64,000 nt of DNA from Squalus acanthias (lineage: Eukaryota): assembly GCA_030390025.1 (NCBI GenBank), contig CM059432.1:27778001-27842000 (forward strand), given 5' to 3'. The translations under genes were made by a program, and so were the position numbers. Shown here in pieces: positions 40,030-49,786 of the stretch. Positions within the stretch are counted from its first letter, which is position 1, and each line of letters opens with the position of its first letter. The notes under the pieces are model-generated. The model was not told the DNA's origin. It worked only from the letters and a program-made list of their open reading frames with translations, and made no database searches.

Positions 40030-42412
40030 GATGAGGTCCTAAAGCAGAATATAGGGAGTTAGGAGGTAAATTAAAAAATAGGACCTCAAAGGTAGTAATC
40101 TCAGGATTTCTACCAGTGCCACGTGCTAGTCAGAGTAGAAATAGGAGGATATTTCAAATGAATACGTGGCTAGAGGAATGATGCAAGGGGGAGGGATTCA
40201 AATTCCTTGGACATTGGAACCGGTTCTGGGGGAGGTGGGACCAGTACAAACGGGATGGTCTGCACCTGGGCAGGGCCGGGACCGATGTCCTAGGGGGAGT
40301 GTTTGCTAGTGCTGTTGGGGAGGGTTTAAACTAAAGTGGCAGGGGGTTGGGAACCTGAGCAGGGAGACAGAGGAAAGGGAAACAAGGATAAAAGCTAAAG
40401 ACAGGAAGGAGAAAAACAAAAGTAGAAGGCAAAGAACTCAACGGTTTAAATCAAACATGGTCACAGTAAATAATAATTCATATAGGTCTGAGAGCATTAA
40501 TTAAGAAGGGGAAAATAGAATATGAAAGTAAGCTTTCAGGGAACATAAAAACTGACTGTAAGAGCTTTTATAGATATGTGAAGAGAAAAAGATTAGTGAA
40601 ATCAAGTGTAGGTCTCTTGCAGTCAGAAGTGGGGGAAGTTATAATGGGGAACAAAGAAATGGCAGACCAATTAAATGCATATTTTGGTTCTGTCTTCACA
40701 AAGGAGGACACAAATAACCTCCCAGAGATGTTGGAGAACATAGGGTCTGATGAAAGGGAGGAACTGAAAGAAATCAGTATTTGCAGGGAAATGTTGTTAG
40801 GGAAATTGACGGGATTGAAGGCCGATAAATCCCCAGGGCCTGATAATCTACATCCTAGGGTACTTAAGGAAGTGACCCTAGAAATAGTAGATGCATTGCT
40901 GATCATCTTCCAACATTCGATGGAATCTGGAACTGTACCCATGGATTGGAGGGTAGCTAATGTTACCCCACTATTCAAAAAGGGTGGTAGAGAGAAAGGA
41001 ATTACAGACCGGTAAGCCTGACATCGGTAGTGGGGAAAATGCTAGAGTCCATTATAAAGGATGTAATAGCTGAGCACTTGAAAAACAATGACAGGATCGG
41101 ACAAAGTCAACATGGATTTACAAAAGGTAAATCGTGCTTGACTAATCTACTGGAATTTTTTGAGGATGTAACTGGGAAAATAGATAAGGGAGAACCAGTA
41201 GATGTGGTGTATTTGGACTTTCAAAAGGCTTTCGATAAGGTCCCGCATAAGAGATTAGCGTGTAAAGTTAAGGCACATGGGATTGGGGGCAAGGTATTGA
41301 CTTGGATAGAGAACTGGTTGGCGGACAGAAAGCAGAGAGTAGGAATTAATGGGTCTTTTTCCGAGTGGCAAGCAGTGACTAGTGGGGTACCGCAGGGATC
41401 GGTCCTTGGACCCCAGCTATTCACAATATACATTAATGATCTAGATAAGGGAACTAAATGTAATATCTCCAAGTTTGCAGATGACACAAAGCTGGGTGGG
41501 AGTGTGTGCTGCGAGGAGGATACCGAGAAACTCCAGGATGATTTGGACAGGTTGGGTGAGTGGGCAGAAGCGTGGCAGATGCAATATAACGTGGATAAAT
41601 GCGAGGTTATCCACTTTGGTGTCAAAAACAGAAAGCCAGACTATTATCTGAATGGCAATAGATTGGGAGAAGGGGAAGTGCAACGAGACCTGGGTGTCCT
41701 TGTGCACCAGTCGCTGAAGGTAAGCATGCAGGTGCAGCAGGCGGTGAAGAAGGCAAATGGTATGTTGGCCTTCATAGCGACAGGGTTTGAGTATAGGAAC
41801 AGGGATGTCCTGCTGCAGTTGTACAAGGCCTTGGTGAGACCACACCTTGAGTACTGTGTGCAGTTTTGGTCGCCTTATCTGAGGAAGGATGTTCTTGCCA
41901 TGGAAGGAGTTCAGCGAAGATTCACAAGGCTGATACCTGGGATGGCAGGAATGACATATGAGGAGAGATTGGGTCGATTGGGCTTATACTCGCTGGAGTA
42001 TAGAAGAATGAGAGGGGATCTCATCGAAACATATAAAATTCTGACAGGCGTGGACAGACTGGATGCAGGAAGAATGTTCTCGATGGTCGGAGAGTCCAGA
42101 ACCAGGGGTCATAATCTAAGGATAAGGGGTAAGCCATTTAGGACAGAAATGAGGAAGAATTTCTTCACCCAGAGAGTGGGGAACCTGTGGAATTCTCTAC
42201 CACAGAAGGTAGTTGAGGCCAAGTCATTAAATATATTCAAGAATGAGTTAGATATATTTCTTAAAGCTAAAGGTATCAAGGGATATGGGGAGAAGGCAGG
42301 TACAGGGTACTGAGTTTGGATGATCAGCCATGATCTCATCGAATGGCGGAGCAGGCTCGAGGGGCCGAATGGCCTACTCCTGCTCCTATCTTCTATGTTT
42401 CTATGTTTCTAT
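40030..42412 (+). mobile_element. Defective CR1 LINE: 5'-truncated in ORF1, endonuclease domain deleted
   Basis: ORF1 C-terminal esterase remnant (..RDGLHLGRAGTDVLGGVFASAVGEGLN*) with an internal TGA; near 40490 it jumps to the post-EN region (LIKKGKIEYESKL); frameshift near 41000; RT ORF 41030-42313; (TTCTATGT)n tail. Confidence 0.9.
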
Positions 42413-43415: not shown

Positions 43416-44889
43416 TATGGATAATCATAATTTAATAGGACAAAGTCAGCATGGTTTTACGAAGGGGAAGTCATGTTTGACAAATTTGCTGGAGTTCTTT
43501 GAGGAAGTAACATATAGAGTGGATAAAGGGGAACCAGTGGACGTAGTGTATTTAGACTTCCAAAAGGCATTTGACAAGGTGCCACACAAAAGATTATTGC
43601 TTAAGGTAAAAAATCACGGGATTGGGGGTAATATTCTGGCATGGATAGAGGATTGGCTATCTAACAGAAAGCAAAGAGTTGGGATAAATGGTTCATTCTC
43701 AGACTGGCAATCAGTAACTAGTGGTGTTCCACAGGGGTCAGTGCTGGGTCCCCAACTCTTTACAATCTATATTAACGATTTGGAGGAAGGGACCAAGTGT
43801 AACATATCAAAATTTGCAGATGATACAAAGATGGGAGGGAAAGTAGTGAGTGAGGAGGACATAAAAAACCTGCAAGGGGACATAGACAGGCTAAGTAAGT
43901 GGGCAGAGATTTGGCAGATGGAATACAACACTGGAAAGTGTGAGGTGATGCACTTTGGCAGGAAAAATCCTAGAGCAATTTATTATCTTAATGGCAAGAA
44001 ACTGGAGAGTACTGAAGTGCAAAGGGATCTGGGGGTCCTGGTGCACGAAACTCAAAAGGTTAGTATGCAGGTGCAGCAAGTGATTAAGAAGGCAAATGGA
44101 ATGTTGGCTTTCATTGCTAGGGGGATAGAATATAAAAATAGGGAGGTATTGCTTCAGTTGTACAAGGTATTGGTGAGACCGCACCTGGAATACTGCATAC
44201 AGTTTTGGTGTCCTTACTTAAGGAAAGACATCCTTGCTCTCGAGGCAGTGCAAAAAAGGTTCACTCGGTTAATCCCGGGGATGAGGGGGTGGTCATATGA
44301 GGAGAGGTTGGGTAGATTGGGACTCTACTCATTGGAGTTCAGAAGAATGAGAGGCGATCTTATTGAAACATATAAGATTGTGAAGGGGTTGGATCGGGTG
44401 GATGCGGGGAGGATGTTCCCGATGACGGGTGAGACGAGAACTAGGGGACATAGTCTTAGAATAAGGGGCTGCTCTTTCAAAACTGAGATGAGGAGGAACT
44501 ACTTCACTCAGAGGGTGGTAGGTCCATGGAATATGCTGCCACAAAAAGCTGTAGAAGCTACAACATTAATTAAATTTAAAACAGAAATAGACAGTTTCCT
44601 GGAAGTAAAGGGCATGAAGGGTTACGGGGAGCGGGCAGGAATTTGGACATCAGTCTAGGTTCGGATCGGTCATGGCCCTGTGGGTAGTGGAGCGGGCCCA
44701 GGGACTGTGTAGCCTGATTCTGCTCCTATTTCGTGTGTGCAATTCTGTTAGATGCAGGAGATGGTTCTGTGATAGATAGTAGATTGGCGGTTAGGATCAG
44801 ATCAGCCATGATCTTATTGAATGGCGGAGCAGGCTCGAGGGGCCGATTGGCCTACTCCTGCTCCTATTTCTTATGTTCTTATGTTCTTA
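43416..44889 (+). mobile_element. 5'-truncated CR1 LINE inserted in a Penelope-like element
   Basis: Open RT frame 43417-44658, (TTCTTATG)n tail, TGAAA duplication at 43411-43415 and 44890-44894. Confidence 0.93.
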
Positions 44890-45353
44890 TGAAACGTTAA
44901 CTCTGTTTCTCTCTCCACGGATGCTGCCTCGCCTGCTAAGTTTTTCCAGCGTTTTCTGTTGTTATTTCAGATTTCCAGCATCTGCAGTATTTTGCTATCG
45001 TCTATAGTTATACTGTTGGATTGTTCCTTATCTGCCCGCCAAATCTTCCCAGTGCTTTGTTTAATTCTGGTGGGCTCGTTAAGGTCGTTAACTTTAATGG
45101 CAGGAGAATGGCCTTTAACGATATTAAATATTTGGTAAGTGGAGGCTGATTGCTGGTCTGATGGTTGTTCATTTGTGTTGAGTTTCGGGCCATCGAAACT
45201 GGGCCTTGGTATGAATAGACTGGGCTTTTGGGCTTGTTTTATTCATGTTTTTACATAGAAACATAGAAACATAGAAAATAGGTACAGGAGTAGACCATTC
45301 AGTCCTTCGAGCCTGCACCACCATTCAATGCGTTCATGGCTGAACATGCTACC

Positions 45354-48290
45354 TCAGTACCCCATTCCTGCTTTCTCGCCATACCCCTTGATCCCCCTAG
45401 TTGTGAGTGTTATATCTAACTCCCTTTTGAATATATTTAGCGAGCTGGCCTCAACAACCTTCTGTGGAAGAGAATTCCATAGATTCACCACTCTCTGGGT
45501 GAAGAAGTTCCTCCTCAGCTCAGTCTTAAATGGCTTCCCCTTAATCCTTAGACTGTGACCCCTGGTTCTAGTTTTCCCTAACATTGGGAACATTCTGCCC
45601 GCATCTAATTTGTCTAAACCAGTCAGGATTTTAAATGTCTCTATAAGATCCCCCCTCATTCTTCTGAACTCCAGAGGATACAAGTTCAGTTGACCCAATC
45701 TTTCTTGATATGTCAGTCCGGCCATCCCAGGAATCAATCTAGTGAACCTTCGCTGCACTCCCTCAATAGCAAGAATGTCCTTCCTTAAGTTAGGAGACCA
45801 AAACTGCGCACAATACTCCAGGTGTGGCCTCACCAAGGCCCTGTACAACTGCAGCATCACCTCCCTACTCCTGTACTCAAATCCCCTTACTATGAAGGCC
45901 ATCATTCCGTTTGCTTTCTTGACTGCCTGCTGCACTTGCATTCCCACCTTCAGTGACTGATGTACCATGACGCCCAGGTCTCGTTGCACCTCCCCTTTCC
46001 CTAATCTGCCACCATTCAGGTAATAGTCCGCCTCTCTATTTTTACCACCAAAGTGGATAACCTCACATTTATCCACATTGTACTTCATCTGCCATACATT
46101 TGCCCATTCACCCAATCTGTCCAAGTCACTCTGTAGCCTCCTAGCATCCTCCTCATTGTTCACACTGCCTCCCAATTTAGTGTCATCCGCAAATTTGGAG
46201 ATATTACATTTAATCCCTTCGTCCAAATCATTAATATATAATGTAAACAGCTGGGGTCCCAGCACCGAACCCTGCGGTACCCCGCTGGTCACTGCCTGCC
46301 ATTCTGAAAAGTACCCATTTACTCCTACTCTTTGTTTCCTGTGTGCCAACCAGTTCTCAATCCACGTCAACACATTACCCCCAATCCCATGTGCTTTAAC
46401 TTTGCTCACCAATCTCTTGTGTGGGACCTTGTCGAAGGCCTTCTGAAAGTCCAAATACACCACATCTACTGGTTCCCCCCTGTCCACCCTATTGGAAACA
46501 TCCTCAAAAAATTCCAGAAGATTTGTCAAGCATGATTTCCCTTTCACAAATCCATGCTGACTTGGACCTATCATGTCGCCACTTTCCAAATGGTCTGTTA
46601 TGACATCTTTAATAATTGCTTCCATCATTTTACCCACGACCGATGTCAGGCTGACCGGTTTATAATTCCCTGCTTTCTCCCTCCCTCCTTTTTTAAAAAG
46701 AGGGGTTACATTGGCCACCCTCCACTCCATCGGAACTGATCCAGAGTCTAAGGAATGTTGGAAAATGATCGTCAATGCATCCACTATTTCCAAGGCCACC
46801 TCCTTAAGTACTCTGGGATGCAGACCATCAGGCCCCGGGGATTTTTCAGCCTTCAGTCCCATCAATTTCCCCAATACCTTTTCCCGACTAATAAGGATTT
46901 CCCTCAGCTCCTCCCTCTTACCAGATCCTCTGACCCCTTTTATTTCCGGCAGGTTGTGTGTGTCCTCCACAGTAAACACCGAACCAAAGTACTTGTTCAA
47001 TTGATCTGCCATTTCCTTGTTCCCCATTACGACTTGCCCTGTTTCCGACTGCAGGGGACCTACGTTTGTTTTTACTAACCTCTTTCTTTTTACATATTTA
47101 TAGAAGCTTTTGCAGTCCATTTTAATGTTCTCTGCAAGCTTCCTTTCATATTTTATTTTCCCTGCCCGAATCAAACCCTTCGTCCTCCTTTGCTGAGTTT
47201 TGAAGTTCTCCCAGTCCCCGGGTTTGCTGCTACTTCTGGCCAATTTGTATGCAACTTCCTTGGTTTTAATACTATCCCTGATTTCCCTTGTTAGCCATGG
47301 TTGAGCCACCTTCCCTTTTTTATTTTTACACCAGACCGGGATGTACAATTGTTGTAGTTCATCCATGCAATCTCTAAATGTCTGCCATTGCCCTTCCACT
47401 GATAGCCCCTTAAATATCGCTTGCCAATTTAACCTCGCCAATTCACGCCTCATACCATCAAAGTTGCCCTTATTTAAGTTCTGGACCATGGTCTCTGACT
47501 TAACTGTTTCCTTCTCCATCCTAATGTAGAACTCCACCATACTATGGTCACTCTTCCCCAGGGGGCCTCGTACCACAAGATTGCTGATTAGTCCTTCCTC
47601 ATTACACAACACCCAGTCCAGGATGGCCTCCCCTCGAGTTGGTTCCTCAACATATTGGTTTAGGAAACCATCCCTTAAACACTCCAGGAAATCCTCCTCC
47701 ACCGTATTGCTTCCAGTTTGAGTAGCCCAATCTATATGCATATTAAAGTCACCCATGATAACTGCCGTGCCTTTTTTGCACGCACCTCTGATTTCCTGTT
47801 TCATACCCTCCCCCACCTCACTACTGCTGTTTGGAGGTCTGTACACAACTCCCACTAACGTTTTCTGCCCTTTGGTGTTCTGCAGCTCAACCCATATTGA
47901 TTCCACATCCTCCAAGCTGATGTCCTTCCTAGCTATTGCATTAATCTCCTCTTTAACCAGCAATGCTACCCCACCCCCTTTTCCTTTTATTCTATCCTTT
48001 CTGAATGTTGAATACCCCTGGATGTTCAGTTCCCAGCCTTGATTGTTCTGGAGCCACGTCTCTGTAATCCCAATCACATCGTATCCGTTAACATCTATTT
48101 GCACAGTCAATTCATCCACCTTATTACGGATACTCCTTGCATTAAGACACAGAGCCTTTAGGCTTATTTTATTAACATCCTTTGTCCTTTTAGACTTATG
48201 ATTTAGTATGGCCCTTTGTGTTTCTTGCCTTTGTTTACTCGGCCTTCCCCTATTGTTTCTCACCCTTCTAACATTTGTTTCTGACTGCAT
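45354..48290 (-). CDS. CR1 ORF2p: APE endonuclease plus reverse transcriptase
   Basis: NARS, ITETW, YRPP, GDFN and SDH endonuclease motifs; DFQKAFD, GVPQGSVLGP and FADD RT motifs; 978 aa without stops. Confidence 0.96.
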   Translation of the reverse strand: MQSETNVRRVRNNRGRPSKQRQETQRAILNHKSKRTKDVNKISLKALCLNARSIRNKVDELTVQIDVNGYDVIGITETWLQNNQGWELNIQGYSTFRKDRIKGKGGGVALLVKEEINAIARKDISLEDVESIWVELQNTKGQKTLVGVVYRPPNSSSEVGEGMKQEIRGACKKGTAVIMGDFNMHIDWATQTGSNTVEEDFLECLRDGFLNQYVEEPTRGEAILDWVLCNEEGLISNLVVRGPLGKSDHSMVEFYIRMEKETVKSETMVQNLNKGNFDGMRRELARLNWQAIFKGLSVEGQWQTFRDCMDELQQLYIPVWCKNKKGKVAQPWLTREIRDSIKTKEVAYKLARSSSKPGDWENFKTQQRRTKGLIRAGKIKYERKLAENIKMDCKSFYKYVKRKRLVKTNVGPLQSETGQVVMGNKEMADQLNKYFGSVFTVEDTHNLPEIKGVRGSGKREELREILISREKVLGKLMGLKAEKSPGPDGLHPRVLKEVALEIVDALTIIFQHSLDSGSVPMEWRVANVTPLFKKGGREKAGNYKPVSLTSVVGKMMEAIIKDVITDHLESGDMIGPSQHGFVKGKSCLTNLLEFFEDVSNRVDRGEPVDVVYLDFQKAFDKVPHKRLVSKVKAHGIGGNVLTWIENWLAHRKQRVGVNGYFSEWQAVTSGVPQGSVLGPQLFTLYINDLDEGIKCNISKFADDTKLGGSVNNEEDARRLQSDLDRLGEWANVWQMKYNVDKCEVIHFGGKNREADYYLNGGRLGKGEVQRDLGVMVHQSLKVGMQVQQAVKKANGMMAFIVRGFEYRSREVMLQLYRALVRPHLEYCAQFWSPNLRKDILAIEGVQRRFTRLIPGMAGLTYQERLGQLNLYPLEFRRMRGDLIETFKILTGLDKLDAGRMFPMLGKTRTRGHSLRIKGKPFKTELRRNFFTQRVVNLWNSLPQKVVEASSLNIFKRELDITLTTRGIKGYGEKAGMGY

Positions 48291-48337
48291 ATTACTTCCC
48301 CCTGTTTCGCTACATAGGTTCCCCTTCCCCTGCCATA

Positions 48338-49282
48338 TTAGTTTAAATCCTCCCGAACTGCTTTAGCAAATATTACCCCGAGGACATCGGTTCCAGTCCT
48401 GCCCAAGTGCAGACCGTCCCTTTTGTACAGGTCCCACTTCCCCCAGAACTGGTTCCAATGCCTCAGGAATTTGAATCCCTCCCTCCTGCACCACTGCTCA
48501 AGCCACGTATTCAATCTCACTATCCTGTTCTCTCTATTCTGATTAGCTCGTGGCCCTGGTAGCAATCCAGAGATTACTACCTTAGAGGTCCTACTTTTTA
48601 ATTTAGCTCCTAGCTCCCTAAATTCTGCTTGTAGGACCTCTTCCCGCTTTTTACCTATATCGTTGGTACCTACATGCACCACGACAGCTGGCTGTTCACC
48701 CTCCCTCTTCAGAATGTTCTGCAGCCGCTCCGAGACATCCTTGACCCTTGCACCAGGGAGGCAACATACCATCCTGGAATCTCGGTTGCGGCCACAGAAA
48801 CTCCTGTCTATTCCCCTTACAATTGAGTCCCCTATCACTATAGCCCTACCACACTTTTTCCCGCCCTGCTGTGCAGCAGAGCCAGCCATGGTGCCATGAA
48901 CCTGGCTGCTGGTGCCTTCCCCTGGTAGGCCATCTCCCCCAACAGTATCCAAAGTGGCATACCTGTTTTGGAGGGAGATGACCACAGGAGACTCCTGCAC
49001 TACCTTCCTGATATTGCCCTGCTTCTTGGTCACCCATTCACTGTCTGTCCTAGCCTTTACCTGCGGTGTGGACAACTCACTAAATGAGCGATTCACCGAG
49101 TTCTCGGCATCGTGCATGCTCCAGAGTGAGTCCACCCGCAGCTCCAGCACCGCCATGCGGGCTGTCAGGAGCTGCAGCTGGACACACTTCCCGCACACGT
49201 AGTATTCAGGGACACTGGAAGTGTCCCTGGTTTCCCACATGGCACAGGAGGAGCATGAAACGGGTCCGAGACTTCCTGTCAT
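48338..49282 (-). CDS. CR1 ORF1p: N-terminal Cys-rich zinc finger/coiled coil plus SGNH esterase domain
   Basis: CxxC...CxxC followed by a Leu-rich heptad; SGNH blocks GDS, GA, GTND, DGLH; 314 aa. Confidence 0.92.
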   Translation of the reverse strand: MTGSLGPVSCSSCAMWETRDTSSVPEYYVCGKCVQLQLLTARMAVLELRVDSLWSMHDAENSVNRSFSELSTPQVKARTDSEWVTKKQGNIRKVVQESPVVISLQNRYATLDTVGGDGLPGEGTSSQVHGTMAGSAAQQGGKKCGRAIVIGDSIVRGIDRSFCGRNRDSRMVCCLPGARVKDVSERLQNILKREGEQPAVVVHVGTNDIGKKREEVLQAEFRELGAKLKSRTSKVVISGLLPGPRANQNRENRIVRLNTWLEQWCRREGFKFLRHWNQFWGKWDLYKRDGLHLGRTGTDVLGVIFAKAVREDLN

Positions 49283-49786
49283 GACTTAACCCTTATGTTA
49301 CTTTATTACTAAAATTTTAACTTATTTATCTTAGGTCCAGGAGTTAAGTCCCTGAAAACAAAATATAAAATCGAACCTACCTTTTAAATTCCCTCTACCC
49401 CTAAAGGTTAGAGGAGGTGGGAGGGTGGGAGTCACTACTAGTGTAGTGTCTCGGGTTTAGCATATTTCTGATATGCCTGGAGTTTTGGTGAGGACTCCAT
49501 TCCTTTACTTCTTTGTATAAATGCTAAGCAGTTTGATGGGCTGGAGTGGGGTCATCCGGTTCCCCAGACAGGTCGACCACCTGTAATATACAACATTATC
49601 TCTGTAGAGGCCAGCCCTGCCTCCTTTGGCAGCCTGTAGTGTGGTCTGCCCAGGCATGTTTTAAAATGTCCCTGGTCCAATACACTTAATTGGTTTTAAA
49701 ATGTCCAAAGTCCCTTTTTCTTAGGGTCTCTCTCTTTTCCTCCGAGTCTTTTGGGGGTCTGGGAATTTTGCAACTCTCTTACAGAC

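Follow-up and report, generated by a model that had tools for sequence, protein, structure and literature searches.

The −1 frameshift between ORF1a and ORF1b (ORF, open reading frame) of coronaviruses and toroviruses takes place at a U_UUA_AAC heptamer accompanied by a pseudoknot, and the retrotransposon-derived gene PEG10 uses the heptamer G_GGA_AAC. How the second ORF comes to be translated from the bicistronic RNA of a long interspersed nuclear element (LINE) is a long-standing open question, and among the LINEs of non-mammalian vertebrates, CR1-type elements form one of the major groups. Frameshifting based on overlapping ORFs has been proposed for some insect LINEs. The Dictyostelium elements TRE5-A and TRE3-A, which like LINEs lack long terminal repeats (LTRs), require a −1 frameshift for ORF2 translation according to the accessible part of one source (PMC5911963). 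Two reviews, the second accessible in part, give reinitiation, coupling, internal entry and 2A peptides as routes to ORF2 (PMC3894237; PMC2881922). The first, on non-LTR protein biogenesis, mentions no frameshifting for ORF2 (PMC3894237), and the word "frameshift" does not occur in the accessible text of the second, a general one (PMC2881922). The accessible portion of a recoding review names HeT-A, TART and L1 among non-LTR elements, not CR1 (PMC5009743). Here we describe a 64,000-nucleotide (nt) stretch of the Squalus acanthias genome (the window; assembly GCA_030390025.1, contig CM059432.1, positions 27,778,001 to 27,842,000), which carries a full-length CR1-like LINE that probably reaches its ORF2 mainly by programmed −1 ribosomal frameshifting.

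A sequence-only reading of the window had proposed such an ORF1–ORF2 fusion and had called it a retrovirus-like strategy in a non-LTR element. That wording proved too broad, since the Dictyostelium statement and the insect LINE proposals mean that the idea is not new for non-LTR elements in general. The suggestion that it had not been described for CR1 stood, as our literature search found no account of a −1 frameshift for CR1 or for LINEs related to it in vertebrates, while an earlier remark in the primary CR1 papers is possible.

The element lies on the minus strand (Table 1), which around 48285–48365 reads ...GCA GTT CGG GAG GAT TTA AAC TAA TAT GGC AGG GGA AGG GGA ACC... and, after ACC, TAT GTA GCG AAA CAG GGG GAA GTA ATA TGC AGT.... 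From stop to stop, ORF1 comprises 315 codons (48338–49285; first ATG at 49282, translation VMTGSLG...). As the sequence-only reading had stated, the heptamer T_TTA_AAC (48347–48341) stands in X_XXY_YYZ register directly before the ORF1 stop, and a G-rich segment (48334–48321) begins 6 nt after it. The −1 frame is closed by a TAA at 48365–48363, after which it opens, reading SSSGGFKLIWQGKGNLCSETGGSNMQSE..., and continues through the heptamer into ORF2, 978 codons long when counted from the ATG at 48290–48288. The predicted ORF1–ORF2 fusion has a length of ~1309 amino acids (aa). All factual statements of the sequence-only reading proved correct.

Since near-identical copies are uninformative on conservation, diverged families were sampled through the ORF1 homologues of other species. 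Per genome search, the best 120–130 of 62,000–90,000 candidate ORF1 matches were scored, and ∼400 nt were examined around each sampled ORF1 end. TTTAAAC is present at 84 of the 86 sampled ends: 30/30 at loci L031–L060, 9/10 at L094–L103, 20/20 at L104–L123, 19/20 at L125–L144, 3/3 at L146–L148, 2/2 in the window, and 1/1 on a metagenome contig (L061) whose ORF1 is 36% identical. Both exceptions, TTTGAAC at L101 and TTTAAAT at L140, are single decayed copies. Codons were then compared for one representative of each of 12 diverged families. Codon −2 of ORF1 is TTA and codon −1 is AAC in all 12, and the following codon is a directly adjacent stop (TAA in seven, TAG in five). Codon −3 varies (GAT, CAT, GGT, ATT or GCT), its third base being T in every family, and each of the ten codons before it has 4–9 variants among the representatives. 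Leu has six codons and Asn two, and the ORF1 proteins of the sampled families diverge to 36–45% identity, so the constraint on the heptamer appears to act on nucleotides rather than on protein. The two comparative expectations of the sequence-only reading, that the heptamer would be invariant at synonymous positions among relatives and that ORF2 would always lie in the −1 frame, hold respectively for the 12 diverged families and for every family sampled, in each of which the ORF2 frame is open from the heptamer. Three properties expected of a tandem-slippage site are found here: a heptamer in the right register, a −1-frame ORF downstream with no stop from the heptamer onward, and conservation beyond what the protein requires (12/12 families; 84/86 loci). 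Within the window, TTTAAACTAR occurs twice, against 0.55 occurrences expected from shuffles, and each site forms the 3′ terminus of one of two diverged copies of ORF1 (48338–48347 on the minus strand, 40325–40334 on the plus strand).

A −1-frame stop (TAA, TAG or TGA) lies exactly five codons before the heptamer in nine of the 12 family representatives, so that entry into the ORF2 frame must there occur within eight codons, the heptamer among them. This stop occurs in lineages as distant as families A (the window family), C and G; selection may have placed it there to cut short premature −1 reading, or chance may account for it. The ORF1 stop after the heptamer is mutated in single copies at L115, L121, L123 and L132 (GAG, CAA, TTA, AAA), which explains the longer open frames listed for these loci.

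Searches of the genome with two other ORF1 types, the catfish type (ending -RTI) and the QGN type, gave matches of 29–44% identity, and all 23 loci fetched from them are of the LN type. Among 20 loci of a metagenome scan, L061 was the sole usable LINE junction, and a motif scan of 14 of the other 19 revealed no comparable ORF1 end. A scan of genome contigs returned 13 loci in bacterial metagenome-assembled genomes (22–33% identity), and a scan of viral contigs one remote match (21% identity).

The stretch between the heptamer and the first endonuclease motif (L/F/V-N-A-R/Q-S/N), hereafter the linker, contains no stop in the ORF2 frame in any of nine representatives, over 34–88 codons, while the other two frames have 1–12 stops each over the same linkers. 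The probability of an open frame in shuffled sequence ranges from 0.002 to 0.13 per linker (5000 shuffles each). In the window copy, 67 codons are open from TTT to LNARS, against 5 and 10 stops in the other frames (probability of an open shuffle, 0.009). Because linker sequence and length are poorly conserved, yet the frame is open, this openness points to coding.

An in-frame start codon is not a constant feature of these linkers. Family A has an ATG 17 codons past the heptamer and family C has one at 14 codons (codons 20 and 17, respectively, counted from the TTT of the heptamer), but these have no counterpart in five of the nine representatives (H, I, D, E and G), whose linkers lack Met altogether. 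The linker of family K (L133) likewise has no ATG, and in family I only some copies are without one. In the older family D, an ATG is absent from the linkers of all eight copies examined. Family H is the closest relative of the window family (ORF2 72% identical). Its junction is the same over 401 nt in at least 15 copies, and all 40 scored matches (the best 40 of 140 candidates) are 99–100% identical. None of eight H copies examined has a Met in the linker. One H copy, followed through ORF2, has an uninterrupted frame of 983 codons from the TTT of the heptamer; no Met occurs in it before codon 256, by which point most of the endonuclease domain has been passed. Initiation at an AUG is therefore not the mechanism common to the clade.

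In the mechanism that we propose, the bicistronic RNA of this recently active CR1-like LINE would be decoded through programmed −1 frameshifting. The majority of ribosomes would make the esterase-type ORF1 protein (ORF1p) and terminate at the UAA abutting the heptamer. A minority would slip back by one base on U_UUA_AAC, the Leu tRNA in the P site moving from UUA to UUU and the Asn tRNA in the A site from AAC to AAA, and would then continue with CUA AUA UGG CAG... in the ORF2 frame. The product would be an ORF1p–ORF2p fusion (...EDLN-LIWQG...) of the length given above, carrying the endonuclease and the reverse transcriptase (RT), and the frequency of slippage would set the ratio of ORF1p to fusion, as for Gag and Gag-Pol. 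The comparative evidence favors this interpretation, and we consider it likely that ORF2 is reached mainly in this way. Slippage itself, its efficiency, and a stimulatory role of the adjacent stop and the G-run are what we infer from the conserved anatomy of the site.

Downstream of the heptamer, a run of at least four G (4–7 G) begins after 8–10 nt in all 12 families. In the group formed by A, B, D, E, F, H, I and J this run falls within TGGCAGGGGG; in the window copy it begins 10 nt after the heptamer, within GGCAGGGGAAGGGG, where position 48324 is T (sense) in most other copies. The G-rich segment to which the sequence-only reading drew attention is thus kept as a G-run throughout, and shows no stable or conserved fold. 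By eye, four G3 tracts with long loops, as for a G-quadruplex, can be found in families B, D and E and are absent from A, C and G, so that a G-quadruplex is not universal.

Several observations count against frameshifting. The case for it is built on sequence comparison, and its DNA-level part comes from one genome and one metagenome contig, other species being represented by protein C-termini; families outside the best-scoring matches could differ. The G-run is the sole conserved downstream feature. ViennaRNA, a tool that does not predict pseudoknots, was applied in eight representatives to the 60, 90 and 130 nt that follow the heptamer on its 3′ side and gave neither a stable nor a conserved stem-loop, the 24 folds having weak energies and z-scores of −1.9 to +1.8, most of them near 0. 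A local RNA structure as the classical stimulator was therefore rejected, and a stimulatory structure 5–9 nt downstream, as in classical sites, is not found. A search of the whole element against Rfam (E up to 1) gave no frameshift element, the sole match being a sub-threshold mir-219-like one. Long-range pairing was rejected as well: the G-rich tract of the window copy pairs best (−24 kcal/mol) with ORF1 codons 6–15, whereas in families C and G the tract has its best partners at other places. An in-frame AUG follows the heptamer at a distance of 4–59 codons in families A, C, B, F and J, so that initiation-based routes are possible there, and family J has both routes open, with UAAUG beside the slippery site. 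Finally, LINE-1 reportedly translates its ORF2 without needing the AUG of that frame, and a missing AUG alone therefore does not exclude reinitiation. In view of the downstream region, frameshifting may be weakly stimulated, or may be stimulated by the adjacent stop or by something that the G-run recruits. A LINE requires far less ORF2 protein (ORF2p) than ORF1p (PMC3894237), and a low shift efficiency would still fit such an element.

The serious rival is termination-dependent reinitiation or translational coupling, in which ribosomes restart near the UAA or UAG, at an AUG or a non-AUG codon, and make separate ORF1p and ORF2p, the heptamer being conserved for some other reason. It has precedent, as ORF2 of SART1 and L1 depends on ORF1 translation and on unconventional initiation (PMC3894237 and, in its accessible part, PMC2881922), and it would agree with the missing strong 3′ structure of the usual frameshifting kind in the eight folded representatives and with the AUG 17–20 codons downstream in families A and C. 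Family J (L126, L127, L129–L132) even has TAATG directly after the heptamer, a stop-start pentanucleotide as in SART1. However, a SART1-type start at or next to the ORF1 stop is found in family J alone. The codon at that place in other families is AUA, GUA, AAA/AAG, GCU, GCA, ACU, AUU or GAA; it is thus not conserved, and in several families (GUA, GCU, GCA, ACU, GAA) it is not near-cognate to AUG. Restarting would also have to do without an AUG over the 34–88 linker codons of five of the nine families, and in one H copy without any before codon 256. No conserved upstream motif of the UGGGA type was seen by eye, in the absence of a formal test. Above all, reinitiation leaves unexplained why U_UUA_AAC is invariant, including the third base of the preceding codon, and why the frame is open from the heptamer and not from a restart codon. 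On balance we regard it as improbable.

Much less likely still is conventional initiation at the AUG at 48290, whether through leaky scanning, through internal entry or from a subgenomic RNA, with the heptamer irrelevant. An AUG with an A at −3 stands 17 codons past the heptamer in family A and 14 codons past it in family C. Scanning would, however, have to pass the 314-codon ORF1, and all families keep the ORF2 frame open over the part that precedes the AUG. The sister family H, with its identical junction copies (at least 15) and one uninterrupted ORF2 frame, lacks this AUG, as do D, E, K and G. Thus, ORF2 does not seem to depend on the ATG at 48290, whose requirement the sequence-only reading had named as a result that would contradict it.

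We give hardly any credence to a joining of the frames in nucleic acid, whether the cause is slippage during transcription, editing or splicing of the RNA, or an artefact from assembly or an indel. An indel in a G-run before the heptamer does fuse the frames in single copies (L148 and the stingray gene models described below). However, at least 40 junction copies keep the two frames at 99–100% identity, and contigs from all four public runs considered (kind unrecorded) cross the junction colinearly, with no indels and no splice-like joint. The homopolymer runs of TTTAAAC are too short for polymerase slippage. Mere coincidence, in which the heptamer would simply encode a Leu-Asn C-terminus of ORF1p that is invariant in the protein alignment, has next to no probability either, because TTA AAC is used in 12/12 families despite six Leu and two Asn codons and diverged neighboring codons, the variable preceding codon ends in T throughout, and no reason at the protein level is evident for a conserved tail of two residues that follows a variable segment and lies right at the stop.

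Protein ends extend the comparison to other species. Among 120 listed ORF1 homologues (36–74% identical to the window ORF1), the C-terminus is intact in 61. It is -LN in 49 of them, and the remaining 12 comprise nine catfish proteins ending in -TI and three others. The LN-enders named among the 120 come from sharks, rays, skate, sawfish, coelacanth and tortoise, and those among 50%-identity cluster representatives from lizard, snake, monitor and snapping turtle. In a 20-sequence alignment with a mean column identity of 45%, L314 and N315 are invariant. Of 94 LN-enders, 93 have before these two a residue for which an NNU codon exists (one of G, A, T, Y, S, D, C, F, H, N, V and L); the remaining one has E there, and K, Q, M and W do not occur.

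In two stingray gene models the protein reads ...GG/FKL... and continues into the endonuclease; GG/FKL is the −1-frame reading of GG TTT AAA CT. In the gene models P0032 and P0121, ORF1 continues in frame into that of ORF2 at this point. At L148 (G000:C1302:12060-12480), an extra base before the G-run preceding the heptamer fuses the ORF1 and ORF2 frames, and this copy is a DNA-level mimic of the proposed trans-frame product. Among the copies with open frames of 563–748 aa, two are ordinary H-type junctions with upstream extensions, and one is L148.

The ORF1 homologues that do not end in -LN include 14 with the C-terminus -GN (preceded by Q at residue −3 in 13 cases and by A in one; among them P0171, P0174, P0177, P0182, P0183, P0194, P0197, P0201, P0238 and P0243) and five that end in -KN (residue −3 is S in four and A in one; among them P0221, P0225 and P0248). 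At the protein level, the -QGN and -[S/A]KN ends would fit G_GGA_AAC and A_AAA_AAC followed by a stop. If DNA sequences confirm this, the first base of the heptamer co-varies with the next two across clades, which would be a signature of tandem slippage. On this basis we put forward, tentatively and as a single compound proposal, that a structure-free minimal cassette (X_XXA_AAC, an adjacent stop, and a G-run 8–10 nt downstream) may have been the sole route to endonuclease and RT in esterase-type CR1 LINEs since before the split of sharks and tetrapods; that ORF2p would be made solely as an uncleaved ORF1p–ORF2p fusion; and that sister clades would have swapped canonical heptamers (U_UUA_AAC for -LN, G_GGA_AAC for -QGN, A_AAA_AAC for -[S/A]KN), the first base co-varying with the next two as tandem slippage requires.

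Some public protein records are in fact this LINE's ORF1 or chimeras with it (P0008, P0028, P0069/P0070, P0084 and P0121). One is annotated as "SGNH/GDSL hydrolase family protein [Pseudomonas aeruginosa]"; it is 59% identical, ends in -GLN and comes from a 4-kb contig, and it is probably vertebrate contamination. Other such records are named "40S ribosomal protein S24 isoform X2", "transmembrane protein 204 isoform", "ABHD14A-like" and "hydroxyacid oxidase 2 isoform X1". In catfish models P0124–P0126 the esterase domain is C-terminal in proteins of 1100–1300 aa with endonuclease and RT, and in carp model P0123 it precedes the RT in one frame; these are either different architectures or merged models of related elements.

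The features of the element and the junction of the second copy are listed in Table 1.

Table 1. Features of the CR1-like element and of the second junction (positions in the window; UTR, untranslated region).
Feature	Positions	Strand	Remarks
Full-length CR1-like LINE copy, 4210 nt	45253–49462	minus	belongs to a very young family
5′ UTR, 180 nt	49283–49462	minus	between the common 5′ end and the first ORF1 ATG
ORF1, 314 aa plus stop	48338–49282	minus	GDSL/SGNH esterase domain; C-terminus ...REDLN
TAA closing the −1 (ORF2) frame	48363–48365	minus	5 codons upstream of the heptamer
Putative slippery heptamer T_TTA_AAC (U_UUA_AAC)	48341–48347	minus	X_XXY_YYZ register of ORF1
ORF1 stop TAA	48338–48340	minus	abuts the heptamer
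G-rich tract GGCAGGGGAAGGGG	48321–48334	minus	starts 6 nt after the heptamer
Linker, N-terminal ORF2 extension in the −1 frame	48150–48340	minus	heptamer to first endonuclease motif LNARS
First ORF2-frame ATG	48288–48290	minus	codon 20 counted from TTT; not conserved
ORF2 frame, stop to stop, 1002 codons	45354–48362	minus	−1 frame relative to ORF1
AP-endonuclease (apurinic/apyrimidinic) within ORF2	about 47544–48098	minus	Pfam
RT within ORF2	about 46026–46685	minus	Pfam
3′ UTR	45253–45353	minus	ends in octamer repeat TTCTATGT (sense; repeat 45253–45281)
TTTAAAC TAA junction of second, decayed copy	40325–40334	plus	diverged family B; ORF1 C-terminus 72% identical

The assignment as CR1-like (CR1/L2 group) is based on domain content, the octamer tail and 5′ truncation. 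In Pfam, ORF1 matches the GDSL-like lipase family PF13472 (E = 3e-13), and the title of Kapitonov and Jurka 2003 reportedly names an esterase domain for the CR1-type ORF1. ORF2 has the order of domains seen in CR1, an N-terminal AP-type endonuclease (PF03372, E = 8e-14, residues 89–273) followed by the RT (PF00078, E = 5e-33, residues 560–779). The 3′ tail consists of 3.8 units of TTCTATGT in the sense direction (45253–45281), and that of the neighboring copy of three units of TTCTTATG; octamer direct repeats in place of a poly(A) tail are a hallmark of CR1. The common 5′ end at 49462 is reached by 13 of 29 other copies of the window family and 49460 by one, and 15 stop inside the element, the frequent 5′ truncation being a CR1-like trait. 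The copies are 99.0–99.7% identical over 2–2.8 kb, a near-identity that indicates a very young family; in a search of the 3.7-Gb genome with a 501-nt junction query, all 40 scored matches (the best 40 of 518 candidates) are 99–100% identical.

On both of its strands, the window also contains numerous ORF2-like fragments that derive from diverged CR1-type families, seen as 41 tblastn segments. The second, decayed copy spans 40041–42310. Two copies are arranged tail to tail, their octamer-repeat ends lying at 44868–44891 and 45253–45281. A palindromic hairpin at 49123–49195, in the 5′ part of ORF1, accounts for the mir-219 match, which appears on either strand, lies below threshold (21 bits; the gathering score is 54.5) and is probably due to chance.

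If the frameshift interpretation is correct, the active enzyme of these elements would be an ORF1p–ORF2p fusion, which would offer a physical reason for cis-preference and for the low ratio of ORF2p to ORF1p. Annotation pipelines that seek an ATG-initiated ORF2 would mis-call or miss intact elements such as those of family H. The site would also provide a simple, conserved eukaryotic shift site without obvious RNA structure that is open to mechanistic study.

Among described systems, the ORF1a–1b junction of coronaviruses and toroviruses shares with this element the same heptamer in the same register, a polymerase in the downstream frame and a short stop-bounded overlap. It differs in that the heptamer here is followed by a G-run, with no pseudoknot or stem-loop found by a tool that does not predict pseudoknots, in that the 0-frame stop abuts the heptamer, and in that the carrier is a LINE of the host genome and not a virus. 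The Gag-Pol arrangement of retroviruses and LTR elements, as covered by the accessible part of one review (PMC5009743), resembles it in an abundant RNA-binding or structural first protein, a rare RT fusion, and a heptamer in the overlap. In contrast to these, the present element is a non-LTR element that uses target-primed reverse transcription and encodes no protease; the fusion would therefore stay uncleaved. PEG10 and similar retrotransposon-derived genes indicate that vertebrate ribosomes shift on X_XXA_AAC (PMC5009743, accessible part), and the sister ORF1 clade ending in QGN would, by its protein ends, fit the PEG10 heptamer. PEG10, however, is a domesticated gene of an LTR element with a pseudoknot stimulator, whereas the element described here is an active LINE. 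With SART1 and LINE-1 it shares a bicistronic LINE RNA and an ORF2 dependent on ribosomes that translate ORF1 (PMC3894237 and, as far as its accessible text goes, PMC2881922), but the ORF2p of those elements is made separately through new initiation, whereas here the ORF2 frame is open from the heptamer and often lacks an AUG. Dictyostelium TRE5-A and TRE3-A are likewise non-LTR elements whose ORF2 encodes an APE-type endonuclease and RT (PMC5911963, accessible part). They belong to another clade and to a host of another kingdom, and in comparison with them the vertebrate LINE has a canonical heptamer that many families conserve and whose conservation, judged by protein ends, extends through the jawed vertebrates.

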